Of a DNA stretch of 64,000 nucleotides, positions 9,648-48,831 are shown piece by piece (position 1 is the first letter of the stretch; each line of letters begins with the position of its first letter). The translations under genes were made by a program, and so were the position numbers. The notes under the pieces are model-generated. The model saw only the letters and a list, made by a program, of their open reading frames with translations. It was not told the origin of the DNA and did not search any database. The stretch is from Synechococcales cyanobacterium VAR_4_metabat_354 (lineage in GTDB: Bacteria > Cyanobacteriota > Cyanobacteriia > Cyanobacteriales > Chamaesiphonaceae): assembly GCA_031414775.1 (NCBI GenBank), contig JANOQI010000031.1, positions 95,693-159,692 on the forward strand. The letters are read 5' to 3'.

Positions 9648-10625
9648 CTAGCTAGCCACATAGTCTCGGAAACTGCCATGACAGCGCCGCAGATGTGAGA
9701 GTGCCTGATGCTCTAGTTGTCTGACTCTTTCGCGGCTGAGATGGAGGATTTCTCCCACCTTAGCCAAAGACATTTCGACATCGCCGTCTAAGCCAAATCG
9801 CAGAGTCAGTACGTGACGTTGCTGAGGAGTCAGCTCTGCCAATATTTCTTGCAGCTCTTGGCGAAGATTGTCTTGCGCCGTATAGTTTTCTGGGGAAATG
9901 CTCGCATCTTCTAACAACTCAGATAGCTCGGTATCTTGGTTATCACCCACCCGTACATCTAGGGAGATGGGTTGACGCGAAATGGTTAGGTATTCACGAA
10001 TTTGGCTTGGCTCTAGTGATAGTGCCTGGGCAATTTCTAGCGTTGTGGGGTTGCGACCTAGCTCTTGAGATAGTTCTCGTTGAGTTTTTTTGATTTTGTT
10101 AAGCTTTTCGGTGATGTGGATGGGCAAACGAATGGAACGGGCTTGCTGGGCGATCGCTCGGGTAATGGCTTGTCTAATCCACCAGTAAGCATAGGTCGAA
10201 AATTTGTAGCCCCGCGTCGGGTCAAATTTTTCTACTCCTCTTTCTAGACCTAGTGATCCCTCTTGAATTAAATCTAGGAATTCTAAGTTGCGTTTTTGAT
10301 ATTTTTTGGCGATTGCTACCACTAAACGCAAGTTAGCTTCAATCATTCTTTTTTTTGCTATTGCGCCCTGTCGCAGGATGCGTTGCAGATCGACTTCACT
10401 AATTTCCGCCTGAGTAGCCCACTCGGCGTTACTAAGTGATGTAGCTTGCTCGTGTTGAATTTTTTCTTTTAGTTCTTGCAATTGCATCATTTGTTGTACT
10501 TGCTTACCAAAACTAATTTCTTCCTCATGAGTGAGCAGTGGTACCCGGCCAATTTCATGTAGGTAGGCACGGATTGTATCACCGTGATACCGGGGTTGTC
10601 GATCGGTCATTTTTTTGCTGGACAT
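9648..10625 (-). CDS. sigB: Group 2 RNA polymerase sigma factor, SigB-like
   Basis: YLHEIGRVPLLTHE..GKQVQQMM, KKYQKRNLEFLDLIQEG and SLDVRVGDNQDTEL match the SigB clade. ATG 10625 chosen as start. Confidence 0.85.
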   Translation of the reverse strand: MSSKKMTDRQPRYHGDTIRAYLHEIGRVPLLTHEEEISFGKQVQQMMQLQELKEKIQHEQATSLSNAEWATQAEISEVDLQRILRQGAIAKKRMIEANLRLVVAIAKKYQKRNLEFLDLIQEGSLGLERGVEKFDPTRGYKFSTYAYWWIRQAITRAIAQQARSIRLPIHITEKLNKIKKTQRELSQELGRNPTTLEIAQALSLEPSQIREYLTISRQPISLDVRVGDNQDTELSELLEDASISPENYTAQDNLRQELQEILAELTPQQRHVLTLRFGLDGDVEMSLAKVGEILHLSRERVRQLEHQALSHLRRCHGSFRDYVAS

Positions 10626-10868
10626 ATCTGTTTCACTCCCGGTCAAAATAGTTAGACGGTCAGGGCAAGTAAGTTAATAAGGCTGAGCTTGCACTAATGG
10701 CTATTGAAAATACATGGTTTAACCTTAACTATTGTTACGACACTAGCAGAATCTTTTTGTTCCAAAACTTAATTTATTATTAAGCATTTTTAAACTAGGT
10801 CTTATGGCTGTTCGTCGTCTATCCAGTTGTTTAGTTCTTACAATTAGGGACAACATAATTCCAGAATG

Positions 10869-12653
10869 TCACAGATAGTTAATAATGTCAGTACAATAGA
10901 TGATAGTGGAATCTGGCTCAGATAAATGACATAATTGTGACAGGTTTGTTCGACGCCATTCACTATCTTGCTGAGCATTAGTAGCTATTTCCCAGACTCT
11001 AATCCCTGGTTCATTGATATGTCTTAGTTGCTGCTGAAATCCTGACCAAGAGGTGATTCTTTGATAGCTAATCTGGTATGCCATACACAGCATCGAAAAA
11101 TCTACATTTTGTGGAGTTACGAAAAATTCTTGAAAGGGTGGATCAAACTTTGCGATCGAAAGCATCGTAAAAATACCACCGCCATTGTTATTAATTAATA
11201 GAATTGTTAAGCTTCCCTGGAACTGTTGTCGCAGTAAAAGTCCATTGGTATCATGCAGCAGTGAAAGATCGCCAGTAATGAGTATTACTGGCTGTGTTAT
11301 TCTGTGTGCAACGCCTAATGCGGTGGAAAGAGTGCCATCGATGCCATTGGCACCGCGATTTCCTAATGGTCGGTATTGTTGATTATTGGGTCGCCAAAAA
11401 AATTCCATATCCCGAATTGGCATACTGTTGGCGATAAATACGATGGTGGCTGGAGGCAATGATTGGGATAGCAGCCAGGGAATTTTGCATTCGCACAGCC
11501 GATCGATCTCGACCATCGTACGATCGATCAATTTACGAGTTTGTCGGTCTAGTGCCAGCCAGTTTTTACTATAGCCAGAAATGGTGGCGTGATCCCGATT
11601 CTGACAATGTTTGGCTATTTCGGTCACTGGAATTCTTAGATAGCTAGCATTGAGGTGGAGCGCGTTTACGTTCTGCTCACTAGTTTCGATAATCCAAGTA
11701 CGAGGTCTGATTCGGCTTAGCCATTGCCGTAATTCTTTGCTGGTTGGCAAATCGCCAATTTGGATAATTACTTCCGGGGTAAGACTTGGTAACACTGTGG
11801 CATTACGCAGAATTAGATCGTAACTAGAAACCAGGTAGGGATTTAAGTCGGCATAGTTACGTAGTGGTGATAGTCCTTCAGCTAATACTGGCCAGCCTAG
11901 AAATTGGGAGATTTGTCCGATCGATCGAGCATAGTCTAGGGGATCAAGGGGTTGAGACACCCCGGCAATAATCAGACCCCTGGTCGCCTGCCAATCAGTC
12001 GGAATTGACCACTGGGTAATAGATAGTCGGGAGAGATTCGGGATTGCTGGGGGCGGAAAATCGGCTAGAGTAGTTGCCAGTGCTTGGATTTCTGGTTGGC
12101 TAATGGGCGGTAGTGGATCGCAGAAAGGTAGGTTGAGATGAACGCCGCCAGGTGTTGGTGTAATAGTGCGTTCCCAGGCGTAGCTAATGGTCTGTTGCAG
12201 ATAGGCCAGTAGGTTTGGCTGGCTGCTGGGGACGGCGATTTCGGCTTGCCAATTGGGATAGTCACCATAGAGTTTAACTTGATCGATCGTTTGACCAGAG
12301 TGACAATCGCGTAGTTCCGGCGGTCGATCGGCAGTCAGAATTAATAAGGGTACCCGGCTTTCGCGGGCTTCGATGACAGCCGGGTAAAAGTTGGCGGCAG
12401 CAGTGCCAGAAGTGCAGACTAACGCCGCTGGTCGCCCAGTGCGTTTAGCATGACCGAGGGCGAAGAAGGCGGCGGAGCGCTCATCTAAAACTGAAACTGC
12501 CTCGATGTGGGGAGCCTGGGCAAAGGCGACAGCTAAGGGGGTGGAGCGGGAGCCGGGACAAATGACGGCTAGCGATACGCCTAAATATTGAAGGGTATCG
12601 ACGAGGACGGAAGCCCAGAGGGTGTTGATATTCCGAAAGTCTAGATCTGCCAA
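10869..12653 (-). CDS. menD: SEPHCHC synthase (phylloquinone/menaquinone biosynthesis)
   Basis: CPGSRSTPL, DERSAAFFALG, CTSGTA, NRGANGIDG and GDLSLLHD motifs. Confidence 0.97.
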   Translation of the reverse strand: MADLDFRNINTLWASVLVDTLQYLGVSLAVICPGSRSTPLAVAFAQAPHIEAVSVLDERSAAFFALGHAKRTGRPAALVCTSGTAAANFYPAVIEARESRVPLLILTADRPPELRDCHSGQTIDQVKLYGDYPNWQAEIAVPSSQPNLLAYLQQTISYAWERTITPTPGGVHLNLPFCDPLPPISQPEIQALATTLADFPPPAIPNLSRLSITQWSIPTDWQATRGLIIAGVSQPLDPLDYARSIGQISQFLGWPVLAEGLSPLRNYADLNPYLVSSYDLILRNATVLPSLTPEVIIQIGDLPTSKELRQWLSRIRPRTWIIETSEQNVNALHLNASYLRIPVTEIAKHCQNRDHATISGYSKNWLALDRQTRKLIDRTMVEIDRLCECKIPWLLSQSLPPATIVFIANSMPIRDMEFFWRPNNQQYRPLGNRGANGIDGTLSTALGVAHRITQPVILITGDLSLLHDTNGLLLRQQFQGSLTILLINNNGGGIFTMLSIAKFDPPFQEFFVTPQNVDFSMLCMAYQISYQRITSWSGFQQQLRHINEPGIRVWEIATNAQQDSEWRRTNLSQLCHLSEPDSTIIYCTDIINYL

Positions 12654-43503: not shown

Positions 43504-44541
43504 TTATACCCCCACCATTGCTTGGATTAAACTCGCTGTGGCTGGTGCTAACAATACCCCATTCCGATAGTGGCCAGTCGCTATTAACACCCGTTCATGT
43601 CCTGGCAAATGTTCAATTACGGGGGCTGGTCTGCCTACTGGTCGAGGGCGCAGCCCACTCCAAGTATTAATAATTTCAGCATCAGCTAGAGCAGGATAGT
43701 AGGCGATGGCCTTTGCCCGAACGATCTCTAACGGCTCTGGCATAGCCTCAACTTTGGCTCCTAATGGAAACTCGACGGTAGCACCAACCCAATATTCACC
43801 ACTATTCAGCGGGACAATATGCACGTCATCACCAGTAACTACTGGTTGAAAATCAGCCATGCTCAGAGCTATTGGTAAACGATAGTGGATGGCCTGACCA
43901 AGTACTGGCATGAGTTCAATGGTTGGCTGGAGAGTGTTGGTGATCGCCATACTTCCCAAACCAGCCGCAACTACTACCCAGTCTGTTTGGAGGGCGTTAA
44001 TGGTGGTGATTTCTGTTTCCCAATGGAACTGAGCGCCCTGGCGCTGGGCAGCAGTTACGAGGGCGTGAGTTAGTTGGGGTGGGTGAATCTGCCAATCGGC
44101 GGGGGAGTAGATGGCGTTGCTGAAGGAGTCAGGATTAATATGGGGTAGTCGATCGATCACGCTCTCCCGATCCCAAATTTCTAGTGGCCAGCCCTGTTCG
44201 ATCCGAGTCTGAGCCAGTGATTGCCATTTGGTCAGATCGTCACTGGCCGCAAGTAGCTTGAGGATTCCTTGGGAATTGTGCGCTACGGGCAGACCAGCTG
44301 CCGCTAATTGAGGAATTAGGCGGTGATAGTAATTAAGGCCCTGTTGACGTAGTTGCCACGCCCGACCTTTGGTTTTTTGGCTGATCACCCCCATTAGTAA
44401 ACCCAGCGCCGCACCGGTAGATTCTTGGGCGGGTTGGTGCTGTCGATCGATCACTACCACTTCCCAGTCGGGCAACTGACTGAATTCGTAGGCAATGGTG
44501 GCACCGACGATGCCACAACCAATGATCGTAATGATAGGCAT
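43504..44541 (-). CDS. FAD-dependent oxidoreductase (DAO/glycine oxidase-like)
   Basis: GCGIVG Rossmann motif, WSGLRPRP and ATGHYRNGVLLAP. Confidence 0.9.
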   Translation of the reverse strand: MPIITIIGCGIVGATIAYEFSQLPDWEVVVIDRQHQPAQESTGAALGLLMGVISQKTKGRAWQLRQQGLNYYHRLIPQLAAAGLPVAHNSQGILKLLAASDDLTKWQSLAQTRIEQGWPLEIWDRESVIDRLPHINPDSFSNAIYSPADWQIHPPQLTHALVTAAQRQGAQFHWETEITTINALQTDWVVVAAGLGSMAITNTLQPTIELMPVLGQAIHYRLPIALSMADFQPVVTGDDVHIVPLNSGEYWVGATVEFPLGAKVEAMPEPLEIVRAKAIAYYPALADAEIINTWSGLRPRPVGRPAPVIEHLPGHERVLIATGHYRNGVLLAPATASLIQAMVGV

Positions 44542-44546
44542 CAGTG

Positions 44547-45002
44547 CTACAGGTCACTCATCTCAAAGTCAGCAAAGTCAAATCCAGGAACAACCACACA
44601 GGCTACTAGGGCATATCCAGCTTTACCGTTAACTGGTTGAGCTTTTTGCCAATAATTGGGCGGTACAATTGCTTGAAAACAATTATCTTGGCCAAGGTGG
44701 ATTAATTGTAATGTCCCTTCTAAGGTTTCGGCTAGGACTAGCTCCAGTGGGTCGCCCGCTTGGTGGAACCATAACTCTGCTGATCGTACCCGATGCCACC
44801 GCGAAAAATGGCCAGTGGGCAGCAAAAATAAAATTGCTGTACCAGCTGACCTGTCGCCGGGATAGTCTGGAGGTAAGGCGGATTGGGGGAAAGTTAGGTT
44901 CGATCGCCAGGTTTCTATGTAAAAACCGCCTTCGGGATGAGGCTGCAATTGCAGGGTCTCAATAAGCTGGGTAACGGCAGGTAGGAGCGGGGTGGCAGAC
45001 AT
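44547..45002 (-). CDS. Cupin_5 (DUF985) protein
   Basis: LQPHPEGGFY.ET, TAILFLL, HRV.SAELW and CVVVPGFDFADF motifs. Confidence 0.9.
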   Translation of the reverse strand: MSATPLLPAVTQLIETLQLQPHPEGGFYIETWRSNLTFPQSALPPDYPGDRSAGTAILFLLPTGHFSRWHRVRSAELWFHQAGDPLELVLAETLEGTLQLIHLGQDNCFQAIVPPNYWQKAQPVNGKAGYALVACVVVPGFDFADFEMSDL

Positions 45003-45282
45003 TAATATTCACGAAATCAAGGATACCAAAAGTGGTTAAGAACTAAGTTGTGGATATGGCACATCCTAAATCTCTTTTCTCATAAAAGTATCCTTAGCGA
45101 ACAGCCATAAGGTTTTCATTCTACCCCACTATCTTAAACTGGCAAATATTTCGAGGGACAGTTACGGACTGGTCATTGGGTCGAGTAAAATAATGAAGTG
45201 TCACAGCAATAACGGCTAATACACGCTGTTAGTTATCATAGATAGTGTGTAGACTTGATTCCCAGACCTTAGTAGAACTGCA

Positions 45283-46077
45283 ATGAGTCCCCCGACTAGA
45301 TTCACTATTGATTTCAACGAAGAATTCCCCCATCTGGAGAAAGCACCCAGTATTGAGGCTGTAATCCATTGGCAGGCAAGTCCGAGTAAAGCATTGGATC
45401 CAGATACTCTTAGGAACGAGCTTATTCGACATTTGCCAGACTATCCAATTTGTGAACCTCAACATGATGTAGAAATTGCTTTTGGAACAGCAGTAGGTTC
45501 CTCCGAGATGAGCCACCGCACCCAGTGGAATGGCTTTAGAATACGAGATGAAAAAAATCATGTGGCTCAGTTCACCCCGATGGGAGCTGTATTTAGCCAG
45601 CTTGAGCCTTATGAAGAATGGGAAAGCTTTCAAACAGAGGCTATGAGATTTTGGGACATTTTTCTAGAGATAGCTGTGCCGACAACCATTCAGCGGTTAG
45701 GAGTACGCTACATCAACCGTATCGTTCTGGGGCGTAACGAAAACCCTTCCACATATCTAAAAATAATGCAATCGGCTCTGGCTGATCTTGAGCTTCCAAC
45801 GGAATCATTTTTTTATCAAGATACTTACCAGATTCCTGGCTATCCTTATCACGTTAACTGGGTACGAACTATTCAGACTCAGTCAATTGCTCCAGTTGAC
45901 TATCAACCTCAAGCCCTTATTATTGACATAGATGTGTTTACAACAAATGAATTTATTGCTTCAGATCGGGAATCCTTAATTAAGCATCTTCATGAAATGC
46001 GTTGGATTAAAAATAAAATCTTTTTTACTTGCATCACCAAAACTGCCCTAGAACAATTTGGAGAATTGAAGTCATGA
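45283..46077 (+). CDS. TIGR04255-like protein
   Basis: L.KAP..EAV, Y..WE.F, RLGVRYINRI, IIDIDVF and L..(M)R..KNKIFF..IT motifs of this sporadically distributed family. Confidence 0.8.
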   Translation: MSPPTRFTIDFNEEFPHLEKAPSIEAVIHWQASPSKALDPDTLRNELIRHLPDYPICEPQHDVEIAFGTAVGSSEMSHRTQWNGFRIRDEKNHVAQFTPMGAVFSQLEPYEEWESFQTEAMRFWDIFLEIAVPTTIQRLGVRYINRIVLGRNENPSTYLKIMQSALADLELPTESFFYQDTYQIPGYPYHVNWVRTIQTQSIAPVDYQPQALIIDIDVFTTNEFIASDRESLIKHLHEMRWIKNKIFFTCITKTALEQFGELKS

Positions 46078-46532
46078 CATCAGCAACCATATCTAGAGGA
46101 AACAGCGAAACCGCTCAGTATCTTAACAACGCTAGTCAATCTAACAGTCAGCATTTTCAACAGTTAGCATCCTTAAGTAAACAATCTGCCTATGAGGAAC
46201 TGATTAATATTTGGGAAGAATGTAAAACAGATAATTGGGACGGATATAATGCTCTCCCCATCCAAAAACAAACCTTTAAGAATACTTACTCCTTCATCAA
46301 ATCATTACCATTGGGATATACCTTACCATCAGTTGGTGTGGAACCAGACGGTCATCTAACACTCGAATGGTATAAACACCCTCGATGGACTATTTCAATA
46401 AGCATTAGTCCAGAAGGCATCCTTTACTACGCAGCATTATTTGGCAATAGCGATGTACGAGGCTCCGAAATTTTCTCATGGGAGATTTCTCGAAATCTCT
46501 TTGATTTAATTCAACGAGTAAATATTGCATGA
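46074..46532 (+). CDS. Hypothetical 'NWDGY' protein (152 aa), translationally coupled
   Basis: ATG overlaps the upstream TGA (ATGA 46074-46077) with SD GGAG; NWDGYNALPI and P.V..EPDG.L.LEW motifs. Confidence 0.75.
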   Translation: MTSATISRGNSETAQYLNNASQSNSQHFQQLASLSKQSAYEELINIWEECKTDNWDGYNALPIQKQTFKNTYSFIKSLPLGYTLPSVGVEPDGHLTLEWYKHPRWTISISISPEGILYYAALFGNSDVRGSEIFSWEISRNLFDLIQRVNIA

Positions 46533-46942
46533 TTGATCCCGAAAAGGTTCCTCCCATTGCAAATACTGAAAAATTGGCACGATACGTGACTCAAAGCGGA
46601 CAGTTTCGTAAAAGTGACCATACGGTGAAGCAAGACCTTTTCATTCCCCATCCACGCCCAGAGTTATCCTTAACACGCCATTTGAATGCGACTGAAGCTG
46701 AAATCTGGGAAATTGGTATTCATGTGTCCAAGCAGATGAATCGAAATCTTTATGGCAGATCGGATATTCAGGCAATTGACTGCAAAATTGACTCGCTGAA
46801 TGTAGTAGAGAAGCCGATCCCCAACAATTCAAATCATGCCGATATTGAAGGTTGGCCATCCCAAAAACAAGATCAAAAAGCTATTGCTCTTAAACTTGCA
46901 GCATCTGCAAGTAAAATCATTCTTCCACCAATGCAATCTTAA
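46529..46942 (+). CDS. Hypothetical protein, possible ADP-ribosyltransferase-fold toxin (R-S-H pattern)
   Basis: ATGA overlap at 46529-46532; EKLAR(18), ELS(47)LTR and NH(103)ADI. The ORF is well supported; the function is inference. Confidence 0.65.
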   Translation: MIDPEKVPPIANTEKLARYVTQSGQFRKSDHTVKQDLFIPHPRPELSLTRHLNATEAEIWEIGIHVSKQMNRNLYGRSDIQAIDCKIDSLNVVEKPIPNNSNHADIEGWPSQKQDQKAIALKLAASASKIILPPMQS

Positions 46943-46956
46943 GCAGTGAGGTGAAA

Positions 46957-47005
46957 ATGCCTAAATCTAAGAGTAAAGTAAAACACTTCTCTCAAACTTA
47001 GGCAT
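46957..47005. terminator. Imperfect hairpin at the right border of the island
   Basis: ATGCCTAA...TTAGGCAT outer arms with inner AGAG/AAGT..ACTT/CTCT complementarity, between convergent genes. Confidence 0.45.
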
Positions 47006-47043
47006 CTATAACAAGAGCTTTATCAGCAAGGGCTGGGGCATTC

Positions 47044-48831
47044 TTAAGCCGGATAAATCCGCAGGCGGCGTTGGGGTTCTTCTCCAAAACTATCAGATCG
47101 CAATCGATAGTGCTCAATTAGTTCGTGTTGCATCTTGCGTACCTTCGGTGACCTCGGTAGTAATTCCACCGGCTGACCCTTGGGAATCACAATTTGCTCG
47201 ACGGCCAACCGCGCTTCTTCTAGAGCCTCCAACTCATCCTCACTACCATCCTTGGCAAACAGCCGCAGGTCAGTAGTTTCGGGTAATACATCATCCAAAT
47301 TTAGCATCCGGCGCAAAGTGCGGGTTAGTTGCGGAATCGTCCCCGACTTCACACTATAGATGGGCAGCTGACGCACCTTGGCCACTTGCCGCAACTTGGT
47401 GTGATTTTTGATATGAGTCCGCAGTGCCAACACCGCATCCGCACTATCCATATCCTTAGTTAGTACCACGGGCAACTGCAAGACATCGATAATTTGCTCT
47501 AGCTCGGTAGCACTAATCCCATAGGGATAAACGTGCAGGGGCAGTCCATCACCACGCGGATCGGTGCCATCGGGTTCTTCGCCATCCCAGGTTGCTTGGT
47601 TAAGCAGTTCTTGGAAAGTGGCACGGGAGTTATCTTCTGCGGCAATGACCACGCTACTCGCTTGGCGAATCGATCGATCATTACTGGCATATTGACGAGT
47701 GGCGGCTGGCAACGGTTCCATCCGACCAGTGGCGCGCCAGCCTCTCCCGCCATCATTATTGACAGCGGTAGGCGCAACGCTGGAGGGCTGGGCGGAGGAT
47801 GATGATAGTTCTTTTTTAATGGTTACTACGCCCTCTTCGTTCACGGTGCGTACCTGCGGCGTGGGTTGGCGACCGCGCAGTAAGTTATCCACCATATCAG
47901 CCACACTGTCGTGTACTACCCAGCGATGGCGCTCCTGCATTTCGACGGCGATCGTGAAGGTGGGGGGTGCTTTACGCTCCAAGACAGTCTTTTGAGAAGA
48001 TCGTCGCCGCGCTTCTTCATCGCCCAAAGTCACCGCTTGAATGCCACCGATCAGATCGGAAAGGGTGGGATTTTTGATCAGGTTTTCCAGTTGATTGCCG
48101 TGCGCAGTGCCGACCAATTGCACACCCCTTTCGGCGATCGTGCGCGCCGCCATAGCTTCTAGCTCGGTGCCAATTTCATCAATCACAATCACTTCTGGCA
48201 TGTGGTTTTCCACCGCTTCAATCATCACTTGATGTTGCAGCTCTGGTTTCGATACCTGCATCCGCCGCGCTCGTCCGATCGCCGGATGCGGAATATCGCC
48301 GTCGCCAGCAATTTCGTTGGAGGTATCAATAATTACCACTCGCTTGTTTAGATCATCGGCCAGCACCCGAGCAATTTCTCGCAGGGCAGTGGTTTTACCC
48401 ACACCGGGACGACCCAACATCAGAATCGACTGACCGGTTTCCACCAGATCGCGAATCATATTGATCGTGCCAAAAATCGCCCGACCCACCCGACAGGTTA
48501 AGCCCACTATTTCCCCGGCTCGATTGCGCATGGCGCTGATCCGGTGCAGGGTGCGCTCGATGCCCGCCCGGTTATCGCCACTAAATAACCCGACTCGATC
48601 AACACAATATTGCAGATCTTCCTTTGTAACCGGAATTTCGCTCAGATATTCAGCACTGTCAAAAAACCGCGCTTCCGGGTAGCGGCCTAAGTCCAGTACG
48701 ACTTCAATCAGGCCACTTTTATTGGGATGAGCGTCAATAATCTGGCGAATCGGTTCGGGCAAAATCTCGAGCAGCTTACTGAGATCATCAGTGATTTGCT
48801 TTCTTCCTAAACTGATGTTTTGATCCACCAT
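47044..48831 (-). CDS. Ycf45/SpoIIIAA-like AAA ATPase with C-terminal R3H domain
   Basis: GRPGVGKTT, DTSNEIAGDGD, VIDEIG and R3H (RKMQH...GEEPQRR) motifs. Confidence 0.92.
   Translation of the reverse strand: MVDQNISLGRKQITDDLSKLLEILPEPIRQIIDAHPNKSGLIEVVLDLGRYPEARFFDSAEYLSEIPVTKEDLQYCVDRVGLFSGDNRAGIERTLHRISAMRNRAGEIVGLTCRVGRAIFGTINMIRDLVETGQSILMLGRPGVGKTTALREIARVLADDLNKRVVIIDTSNEIAGDGDIPHPAIGRARRMQVSKPELQHQVMIEAVENHMPEVIVIDEIGTELEAMAARTIAERGVQLVGTAHGNQLENLIKNPTLSDLIGGIQAVTLGDEEARRRSSQKTVLERKAPPTFTIAVEMQERHRWVVHDSVADMVDNLLRGRQPTPQVRTVNEEGVVTIKKELSSSSAQPSSVAPTAVNNDGGRGWRATGRMEPLPAATRQYASNDRSIRQASSVVIAAEDNSRATFQELLNQATWDGEEPDGTDPRGDGLPLHVYPYGISATELEQIIDVLQLPVVLTKDMDSADAVLALRTHIKNHTKLRQVAKVRQLPIYSVKSGTIPQLTRTLRRMLNLDDVLPETTDLRLFAKDGSEDELEALEEARLAVEQIVIPKGQPVELLPRSPKVRKMQHELIEHYRLRSDSFGEEPQRRLRIYPA

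Follow-up and report, generated by a model that had tools for sequence, protein, structure and literature searches.

A mobile three-gene module, predicted to be a toxin-antitoxin system, headed by a TIGR04255 protein in a cyanobacterial genome

The closest described relatives in design of the locus reported here are the TAC systems, in which the toxin and antitoxin genes are followed by the gene of a chaperone and the antitoxin carries a C-terminal ChAD, as laid out in the accessible part of the source (bioRxiv 2024.02.24.581848). The third protein of such systems is SecB-like; the antitoxin relies on it, and a phage protein sets off the release. One of their toxins, CmdT, uses the triad H-Y-[E/D/Q] and showed no toxicity by itself, according to the available portion of PMC11618068. 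A different ART-like toxin, the Pseudomonas T6SS antibacterial effector Tse2, has a pocket formed by R14, S80 and H122 (10.64898/2026.06.15.732508, available in part). Closest by family profile is PDC-M32, a predicted PADLOC defence candidate of Payne et al. 2024 that, in the accessible text, was picked for its embedding in defence systems (bioRxiv 2024.01.29.577857).

Here, we analysed a three-gene locus within a stretch of 64,000 nucleotides, the whole of which is called the window below. The locus is a real, conserved and mobile tripartite module, a predicted toxin-antitoxin system that would follow the logic of the TAC systems with other components.

The locus and its spread

Three co-oriented genes on the + strand make up the module. 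Gene 1 (45283..46077, 264 aa) belongs to the TIGR04255 family (145.3 bits against an NCBIfam cut-off of 30, profile positions 2-252 of 252, E 2.7e-42) and is a putative helper that may serve as sensor or chaperone. Gene 2 (46074..46532, 152 aa counted from its ATG, with an in-frame TTG also listed by the ORF tool at 46029) encodes a WDGY protein, a putative antitoxin, and gene 3 (46529..46942, 137 aa) encodes a putative NAD-dependent toxin with a predicted ART fold. Both gene junctions are ATGA overlaps (46074-77 and 46529-32). The whole accessory segment of ~2.0 kb (45013..47035, no strand assigned) lies between two genes on the - strand, one of 151 aa on the left (44547-45002) and one of 595 aa on the right (47044-48831), which are plausibly a cupin and a ycf45-like gene by the sequence-based labels of the initial annotation.

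The segment has a G+C content of 40.7%, below the values for the window (46.3%) and the genome (45.6%), a bias that is mild because 8% of 4197 same-size genome windows are equally low. The motif CGATCG is absent from 44901 to 47671, and this gap of 2770 bp is the longest in the window; in the genome, 33 of 8375 gaps are at least that long and 176 of 4197 equal-sized windows are free of the site. The initial annotation had described the three coupled ORFs, the TIGR04255-like nature of gene 1, the lack of CGATCG in the three genes and a richness in A+T, and each of these descriptions holds, the last in its direction and with a small effect. Across the window (1-64000), CGATCG is strongly over-represented (156 occurrences, 10 expected) and the 8-mer GCGATCGC is rare (11), the pattern of a HIP1 variant. 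Gene 3 and the downstream gene converge, and the space between their 3' ends contains a hairpin with 17-nt inverted arms (46957..47005, no strand assigned; -13.6 kcal/mol, z -3.8, 1 of 200 shuffles equally stable) that appears terminator-like, and the terminator scan did not call it. No transposon ends, target duplication or operator-like repeats upstream were found at the locus, and the promoter scan there was at chance level. Genes 2 and 3 occur once in this genome, which also has a second, unrelated TIGR04255 operon (L001, G000:C62, about 210500-212250) with an HTH-type middle gene and a third gene of the "QGD" type that is cut to 62 aa and followed by a transposase-like ORF.

Relatives were gathered as 99 of 120 listed for gene 3 (set A1) and 107 of 120 listed for gene 2 (A2), with 131 diverse rows for gene 3 (A3) and 58 rows for gene 1 (A4). 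The conservation in A3 and A4 was too low along their whole length to scan for loci with them. At the genome loci found with A1, gene 2 lies directly upstream of gene 3 in 31 of 31 and gene 1 is also present in 28; three of the 31 (L058, L059, L061) have a broken gene 3 next to a whole gene 2. A2 led to 267 metagenome loci, and in the best 80 of these, a set biased to full-length gene 2, gene 1 stands upstream in 71 of the 71 with room for it and gene 3 downstream in 65 of 66. Thus the three families co-occur well beyond this genome, in support of the interpretation in the initial annotation. Several loci depart from the common layout: L046 holds a second, divergent triplet (9865-11723), which is encoded on the other strand at a distance of 1.4 kb; L067, L069 and L070 have distant gene 2-gene 3 pairs behind a different first gene, which encodes a 100-aa protein in L067 and L069 and a longer one without a TIGR04255 match in L070; and L083 (4001-4525) has genes 1 and 2, no gene 3 found downstream, and a gene 2 frame extended by ~20 codons.

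The gene 3 profile gathers 2340 clusters at 50% identity, and within the phylum it matched 9 of 401 genomes, two of them strongly. The left flanking gene is matched in 7 of 12 genomes of the genus. In G007 (locus L073), matches to 44401-45012 and 47036-47589 lie ~70 bp apart with the module absent, an empty site that sets the triplet apart from syntenic core genes, while G003 carries the module at the same site and four other genus genomes have the flank alone within the examined stretch. Against L031, where the module stands beside the same genes, dN/dS is 0.17, 0.18 and 0.15 for genes 1, 2 and 3, so the triplet is under purifying selection; dS is 0.21-0.50 across the module and 1.27 and 1.58 in the two flanking genes, and the low values therefore point to exchange here that postdates the split of the hosts. 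The gene 2 tree intermixes planctomycete rows with cyanobacterial ones. Viruses carry the triplet too, in divergent form: a P2-family Ralstonia phage has one, and so do 5 of 28 viral loci (5 of 13 clusters), the third gene in two of those five being recognised solely by alignment; no match of the gene 3 profile in viral contigs was confirmed. The module is accessory and mobile.

A predicted toxin and its antitoxin

The model of gene 3 (pLDDT 94.5) was compared with known structures by an exhaustive structural aligner, and almost every top-ranking row was an ART-fold protein: Tpt1 (Z 6.7, rmsd 3.5, 92 aligned), four times in the first 16 rows, then Tse2 (Z 5.7, rmsd 3.3, 104 aligned, 14% identity), AvrPphF (Z 5.2) and Tne2 (Z 5.0). 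These Z-scores are middling, in a range that the aligner rates as possibly a common arrangement, and the weight of the predicted fold, which had also been put forward from the letters of the DNA, lies in the uniformity of the match list. Foldseek returned no match for gene 3 at E<=0.001 in the PDB or among viral models. Three putative pocket residues, R18 (codon 46580-82), S47 (46667-69) and H103 (46835-37, all +), are conserved in 130, 130 and 131 of the 131 A3 rows, respectively, and are invariant in 12 of 12 divergent homologues of 15-34% identity; compared by order alone, they match the pocket of Tse2. Pfam searches with the 131 members at E<=0.1 gave no ART family and no Tse2-family match. 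For all three genes, Pfam gave nothing credible (RES and DarT were not matched), PHROGs gave no match and the PDB sequence search nothing credible; clusters in the ESM Atlas were unnamed or TIGR04255, with an AF2212-like one at 0.79 as a lead. Homologues of gene 3 of 217-224 aa (P0012, P0017 and others) have a C-terminal linker and a hydrophobic, membrane-anchor-like helix. It is very probable that gene 3 is toxic, and it probably works through NAD+ chemistry.

Gene 2 is predicted to bind gene 3 directly, with a complex score of 0.90 in three runs against 0.00 for the best control, in line with the antitoxin and toxin roles first assigned to the two genes. Of solved pairs, 116 of 157 attained the mark applied to this score, as did 2 of 215 mismatched ones; the mark is roughly valid for the alignments used. 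The runs had at least 96% of contacts in common and a partner pLDDT of at least 91, and since both families are without a credible PDB sequence relative, a complex memorised from a like structure is unlikely. The predicted interface covers gene 2 residues 46-131, among them 54-61 with WDGY, and contacts S47 of gene 3; the motif itself (residues 55-58; 46236..46247, +) thus falls in the predicted toxin-binding face, and W55, D56 and G57 are each at least 90% conserved. Coupling by ATGA and a predicted direct complex at that score would together fit the pattern of type II toxin-antitoxin pairs. Two homologues of gene 2 (P0387, P0388; 344 aa) are fused to a C-terminal SocA/Panacea antitoxin domain and another (P0233) to PF22513, which we take to be of the ribbon-helix-helix type; by domain content, these fusions point to an antitoxin role. 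No fusion of gene 1 to gene 2 or of gene 2 to gene 3 was found among longer proteins, an absence that is weak evidence because 8000 candidates were scored.

The first 45 residues of gene 2 (46074..46208, +) form an N-terminal tail rich in Ser, Thr, Asn and Gln, which is not among the confident gene 3 contacts of the predicted complex and is a candidate handle for gene 1. Residues 2-41 are 55% S/T/N/Q, compared with a control mean of 23%. Scored with a profile of residues 5-36, the three loci without gene 1 give -1.9, -1.2 and no hit, and the 30 loci with it give 3.7-62.3 bits, three divergent ones among the latter also being low (3.7-9.7 bits). The tail thus tracks the presence of gene 1, in a small sample with three loci that lack it: these loci represent two changes on the best tree and are grouped in 0 of 200 bootstrap trees, and the well-supported branches are compatible with a single origin. 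Since gene 2-gene 3 pairs without gene 1 exist, gene 1 is not always needed, and in its absence an N-terminus of DNA-binding type can take the place of the tail (L050 by reading, P0233 by PF22513).

Stand-alone WDGY genes like gene 2, with neither gene 1 nor gene 3, lie among phage genes at 23 of 28 viral loci (8 clusters; L159, L161-L180, L184, L185) and are possible antitoxin mimics. In L184 (4423-5429), a viral contig of 424 kb, the WDGY gene directly follows a gene that matches phrog_1017 and PDC-M42C and that is presumably a NADAR-like ADP-ribose hydrolase.

Proposed mechanism and alternative readings

TIGR04255 is present in 21 of 41 related genomes, and its loci in these relatives have a coupled second gene in 30 of 30 cases and a third gene in 28. 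The third genes fall into a "QGD" family (18), another unnamed family (6), the ART fold described here (2), HEPN (1) and PIN (1), and 10 of the middle genes form an HTH-type family. In the commonest third-gene family, "QGD...CD[LI]" (L002-L012, L021-L023, L025, L027 and L028 included), the scanned members matched nothing in Pfam, NCBIfam or PADLOC, and the third gene of the L014 type has no detectable kinship with gene 3 (hhalign probability 0.1%). In the middle proteins, S/T/N/Q account on average for 35% of the first 40 residues, compared with 23% in the remainder and in 1699 control ORFs, and one representative from each of 8 middle-protein families gives starts of 28-55%; the measure was chosen after inspecting the sequences, and control starts were taken at the first Met.

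On these grounds we propose that the module is a mobile toxin-antitoxin system of three components, whose most likely function is to abort phage infection, with gene 1 holding the gene 2 tail, and we give this full reading an even chance. Gene 3 would be a small ART-fold toxin that uses NAD+ in its R-S-H pocket, to transfer ADP-ribose to nucleic acid or protein or to cleave NAD+, and gene 2 would neutralise it through direct binding by the WDGY core. The curved sheet of gene 1 would hold the extended N-terminal tail of gene 2 and thereby keep the pair silent, until a phage molecule competed for gene 1, or a shut-off of host synthesis stopped resupply, and the freed toxin arrested the cell. The coupling of the genes, their co-occurrence, mobility and purifying selection, the folds, the predicted complex of genes 2 and 3 and the tracking of gene 1 by the tail were computed; the logic of the mechanism would be that of TAC systems, borrowed by analogy from the accessible text of bioRxiv 2024.02.24.581848. 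That gene 1 acts through the tail is the slightly favoured view of its part.

The evidence on an anti-phage role comes from the surroundings of the triplets. At 31 genome loci, 128 of 165 picked neighbours were scanned, long ones cut to 600 residues. PADLOC matched 26 of these 128 and 12 of 50 ordinary genes of the window, so that a raw enrichment of defence neighbours, which the initial annotation had named as a check, was not seen. By reading, clear restriction-type neighbours occur at 5 of the 31 loci: in L038 a type I RM operon encloses the triplet, with hsdM-hsdS on one side and a GmrSD/HEC-05-like gene plus hsdR on the other, and L035, L039, L052 and L060 have restriction- or nuclease-type neighbours. 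None of the 50 control genes had a restriction or GmrSD profile match, in a split judged after the fact. In L181 the triplet lies directly beside a P2-like portal-terminase pair, the portal side being, in the accessible part of PMC9122126, the position of a known P2 defence hotspot. Further triplet copies occur in other viral contigs, and the copy in the Ralstonia phage was not counted as portal-side because it adjoins the integrase end. The window copy has housekeeping genes around it and no defence neighbour, and most copies are likewise alone. An anti-phage role is somewhat favoured by the copies enclosed in the RM operon and adjoining the P2-like portal. The same pair might instead be a selfish addiction or stress module with no part in phage defence, gene 1 merely stabilising the antitoxin, as the solitary position of most copies among housekeeping genes, the absent enrichment and the three loci with a broken gene 3 beside a whole gene 2 would allow; the copies in the RM operon and at the portal, the kinship with PDC-M32, a family picked for defence embedding, and the lack of any match to gene 3 as a single query among 72,556 plasmids make this unlikely.

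Within the proposed three-component system, the fold of gene 1 does not fix its function. The model (pLDDT 90.8) is a curved beta-sheet backed by helices, and the top structural rows are McsB, phosphagen kinases, TBP and RepDE, families outside this listing not being excluded. Both VIA lists are led by McsB and arginine kinases (Z 7.2-8.3, 172-186 aligned), with the McsB kinase domain at Z 8.3, rmsd 4.0 and 172 aligned, followed by TBP (Z 6.4-6.9) and RepDE (Z 6.5-7.0). NCBIfam gives TIGR04255 alone and Pfam no family at E<=1. Gene 1 could accordingly be an enzyme with the guanidino-kinase/glutamine-synthetase fold, switching the pair through modification of either the toxin or the Ser/Thr-rich gene 2 tail, a reading that the leading matches and the conserved polar residues R138, R142, N145, D215 and D217 favour; yet it is improbable at 4-10% identity and an rmsd of ~4 A, with almost equal scores for TBP and RepDE, no match to the gene 1 sequence in Pfam or the PDB and no NEED-type motif, which is a kinase motif, seen in it. 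A step less probable again is that gene 1 forms a TBP/Rep-like saddle for binding DNA or RNA, as operon repressor or phage nucleic-acid sensor, in keeping with the TBP and RepDE matches and with the DNA-binding-type N-termini that can replace the tail where gene 1 is absent, but at odds with the HTH already present in the middle gene of several TIGR04255 operons, an rmsd to TBP of ~5 A and the missing operator-like repeat upstream. It is very improbable that gene 3 is a non-toxic Tpt1/KptA-like enzyme for NAD+-using processing of RNA or DNA ends with genes 1 and 2 as partners, although Tpt1, which is not a toxin, heads the structural matches, because the NAD-binding half alone is matched (chain range, as given, 86-180 of 179 residues), Tse2 lies within 1 Z, strong matches are patchy in the phylum, the predicted partner is tight and inhibitor-like with antitoxin-domain fusions, and HEPN and PIN genes occupy the same slot in sister operons.

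Relation to known systems

The analysis gives TIGR04255 a testable role, and genes 2 and 3 now define two unnamed families. A broader and more tentative reading, which we consider possible though less than evenly likely, is that TIGR04255 is a sensor-chaperone unrelated to SecB that heads a large class of tripartite immune operons, grips a Ser/Thr-rich N-terminal tail that many unrelated antitoxins have acquired and so arms at least five toxin families (the R-S-H ART fold, HEPN, PIN and two unnamed ones). If so, the TAC principle would have been invented a second time by convergence, and the stand-alone WDGY genes of phages would be antitoxin mimics. If gene 1 could be exchanged among many toxins as their phage sensor, SecB would be dispensable for TAC-type immunity, and the R-S-H ART fold would gain a small resident model with its cognate inhibitor.

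In agreement with the initial annotation, the module is not identical to any named system, with no match above weak scores. Literature searches found it described nowhere, and the term TIGR04255 is absent from the full texts searched, a corpus in which most subscription papers are not covered and another naming is possible; the supplement of PMC13586616 holds neither TIGR04255 nor PDC-M32, and the accessible DefensePredictor text has nothing that matches the module.

By sequence profile, genes 2 and 3 are probably distant kin of the candidate pair PDC-M32A/B, a link that the initial annotation had missed. Of 107 members of the gene 2 family, 93 hit the C-terminal portion of PDC-M32A (best E 4e-6), and of 99 in the gene 3 family, 37 hit PDC-M32B (best E 1.2e-4), so that the A-B pairing is kept. 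The window proteins themselves match weakly (E 0.0048 and 0.034), and true PDC-M32 members are far stronger (1e-153 and 6e-38; PMC12429752, available in part). Only positions ~257-368 of the 375 in the PDC-M32A profile are matched by gene 2 homologues, its first ~250 positions match neither gene 1 nor gene 2, gene 1 homologues give no hit, and PDC-M32 consists of two profiles with no TIGR04255 hit.

Two further comparisons concern the pair of genes 2 and 3. MbcTA, ParST, Xre-RES and DarTG share with it an upstream, coupled antitoxin, predicted direct binding and the ART fold (Z 3.0-4.2), but here there is no Pfam RES or DarT match, gene 2 is without a DNA-binding domain and a third gene is usual. 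Tse2 shares the ART-like fold and the R/S/H pocket order with gene 3, at 14% identity and with no Pfam Tse2-family match in 131 members; gene 3 lies in a resident operon rather than with a secretion system, and gene 2 has no PDB sequence relative although Tsi2 is in the PDB.

With CmdTAC (PD-T4-9) and the other TAC systems (HigBAC, MqsRAC), in the accessible parts of their descriptions, the module shares three coupled genes, an ART-fold toxin, an antitoxin with an extended tail, a third component common to different toxin families and copies in P2-like prophages (PMC11618068, bioRxiv 2024.02.24.581848). The comparison with CmdTAC made at the outset therefore stands for the tripartite logic and fails for the toxin clade, the SecB sequence, the gene order and the end that bears the tail. 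The toxin is of a different clade, the conserved residues here are R18, S47 and H103 instead of H-Y-[E/D/Q], and the third gene has no SecB sequence match: a 58-row profile of gene 1 drew no SecB chain from the PDB, and SecB is absent among the structural matches listed. The order of the genes is reversed, with gene 1 first, then antitoxin and toxin, and the tail is N-terminal in place of the C-terminal ChAD. The likeness to CmdTAC is thus one of logic alone, and the module is not CmdTAC.
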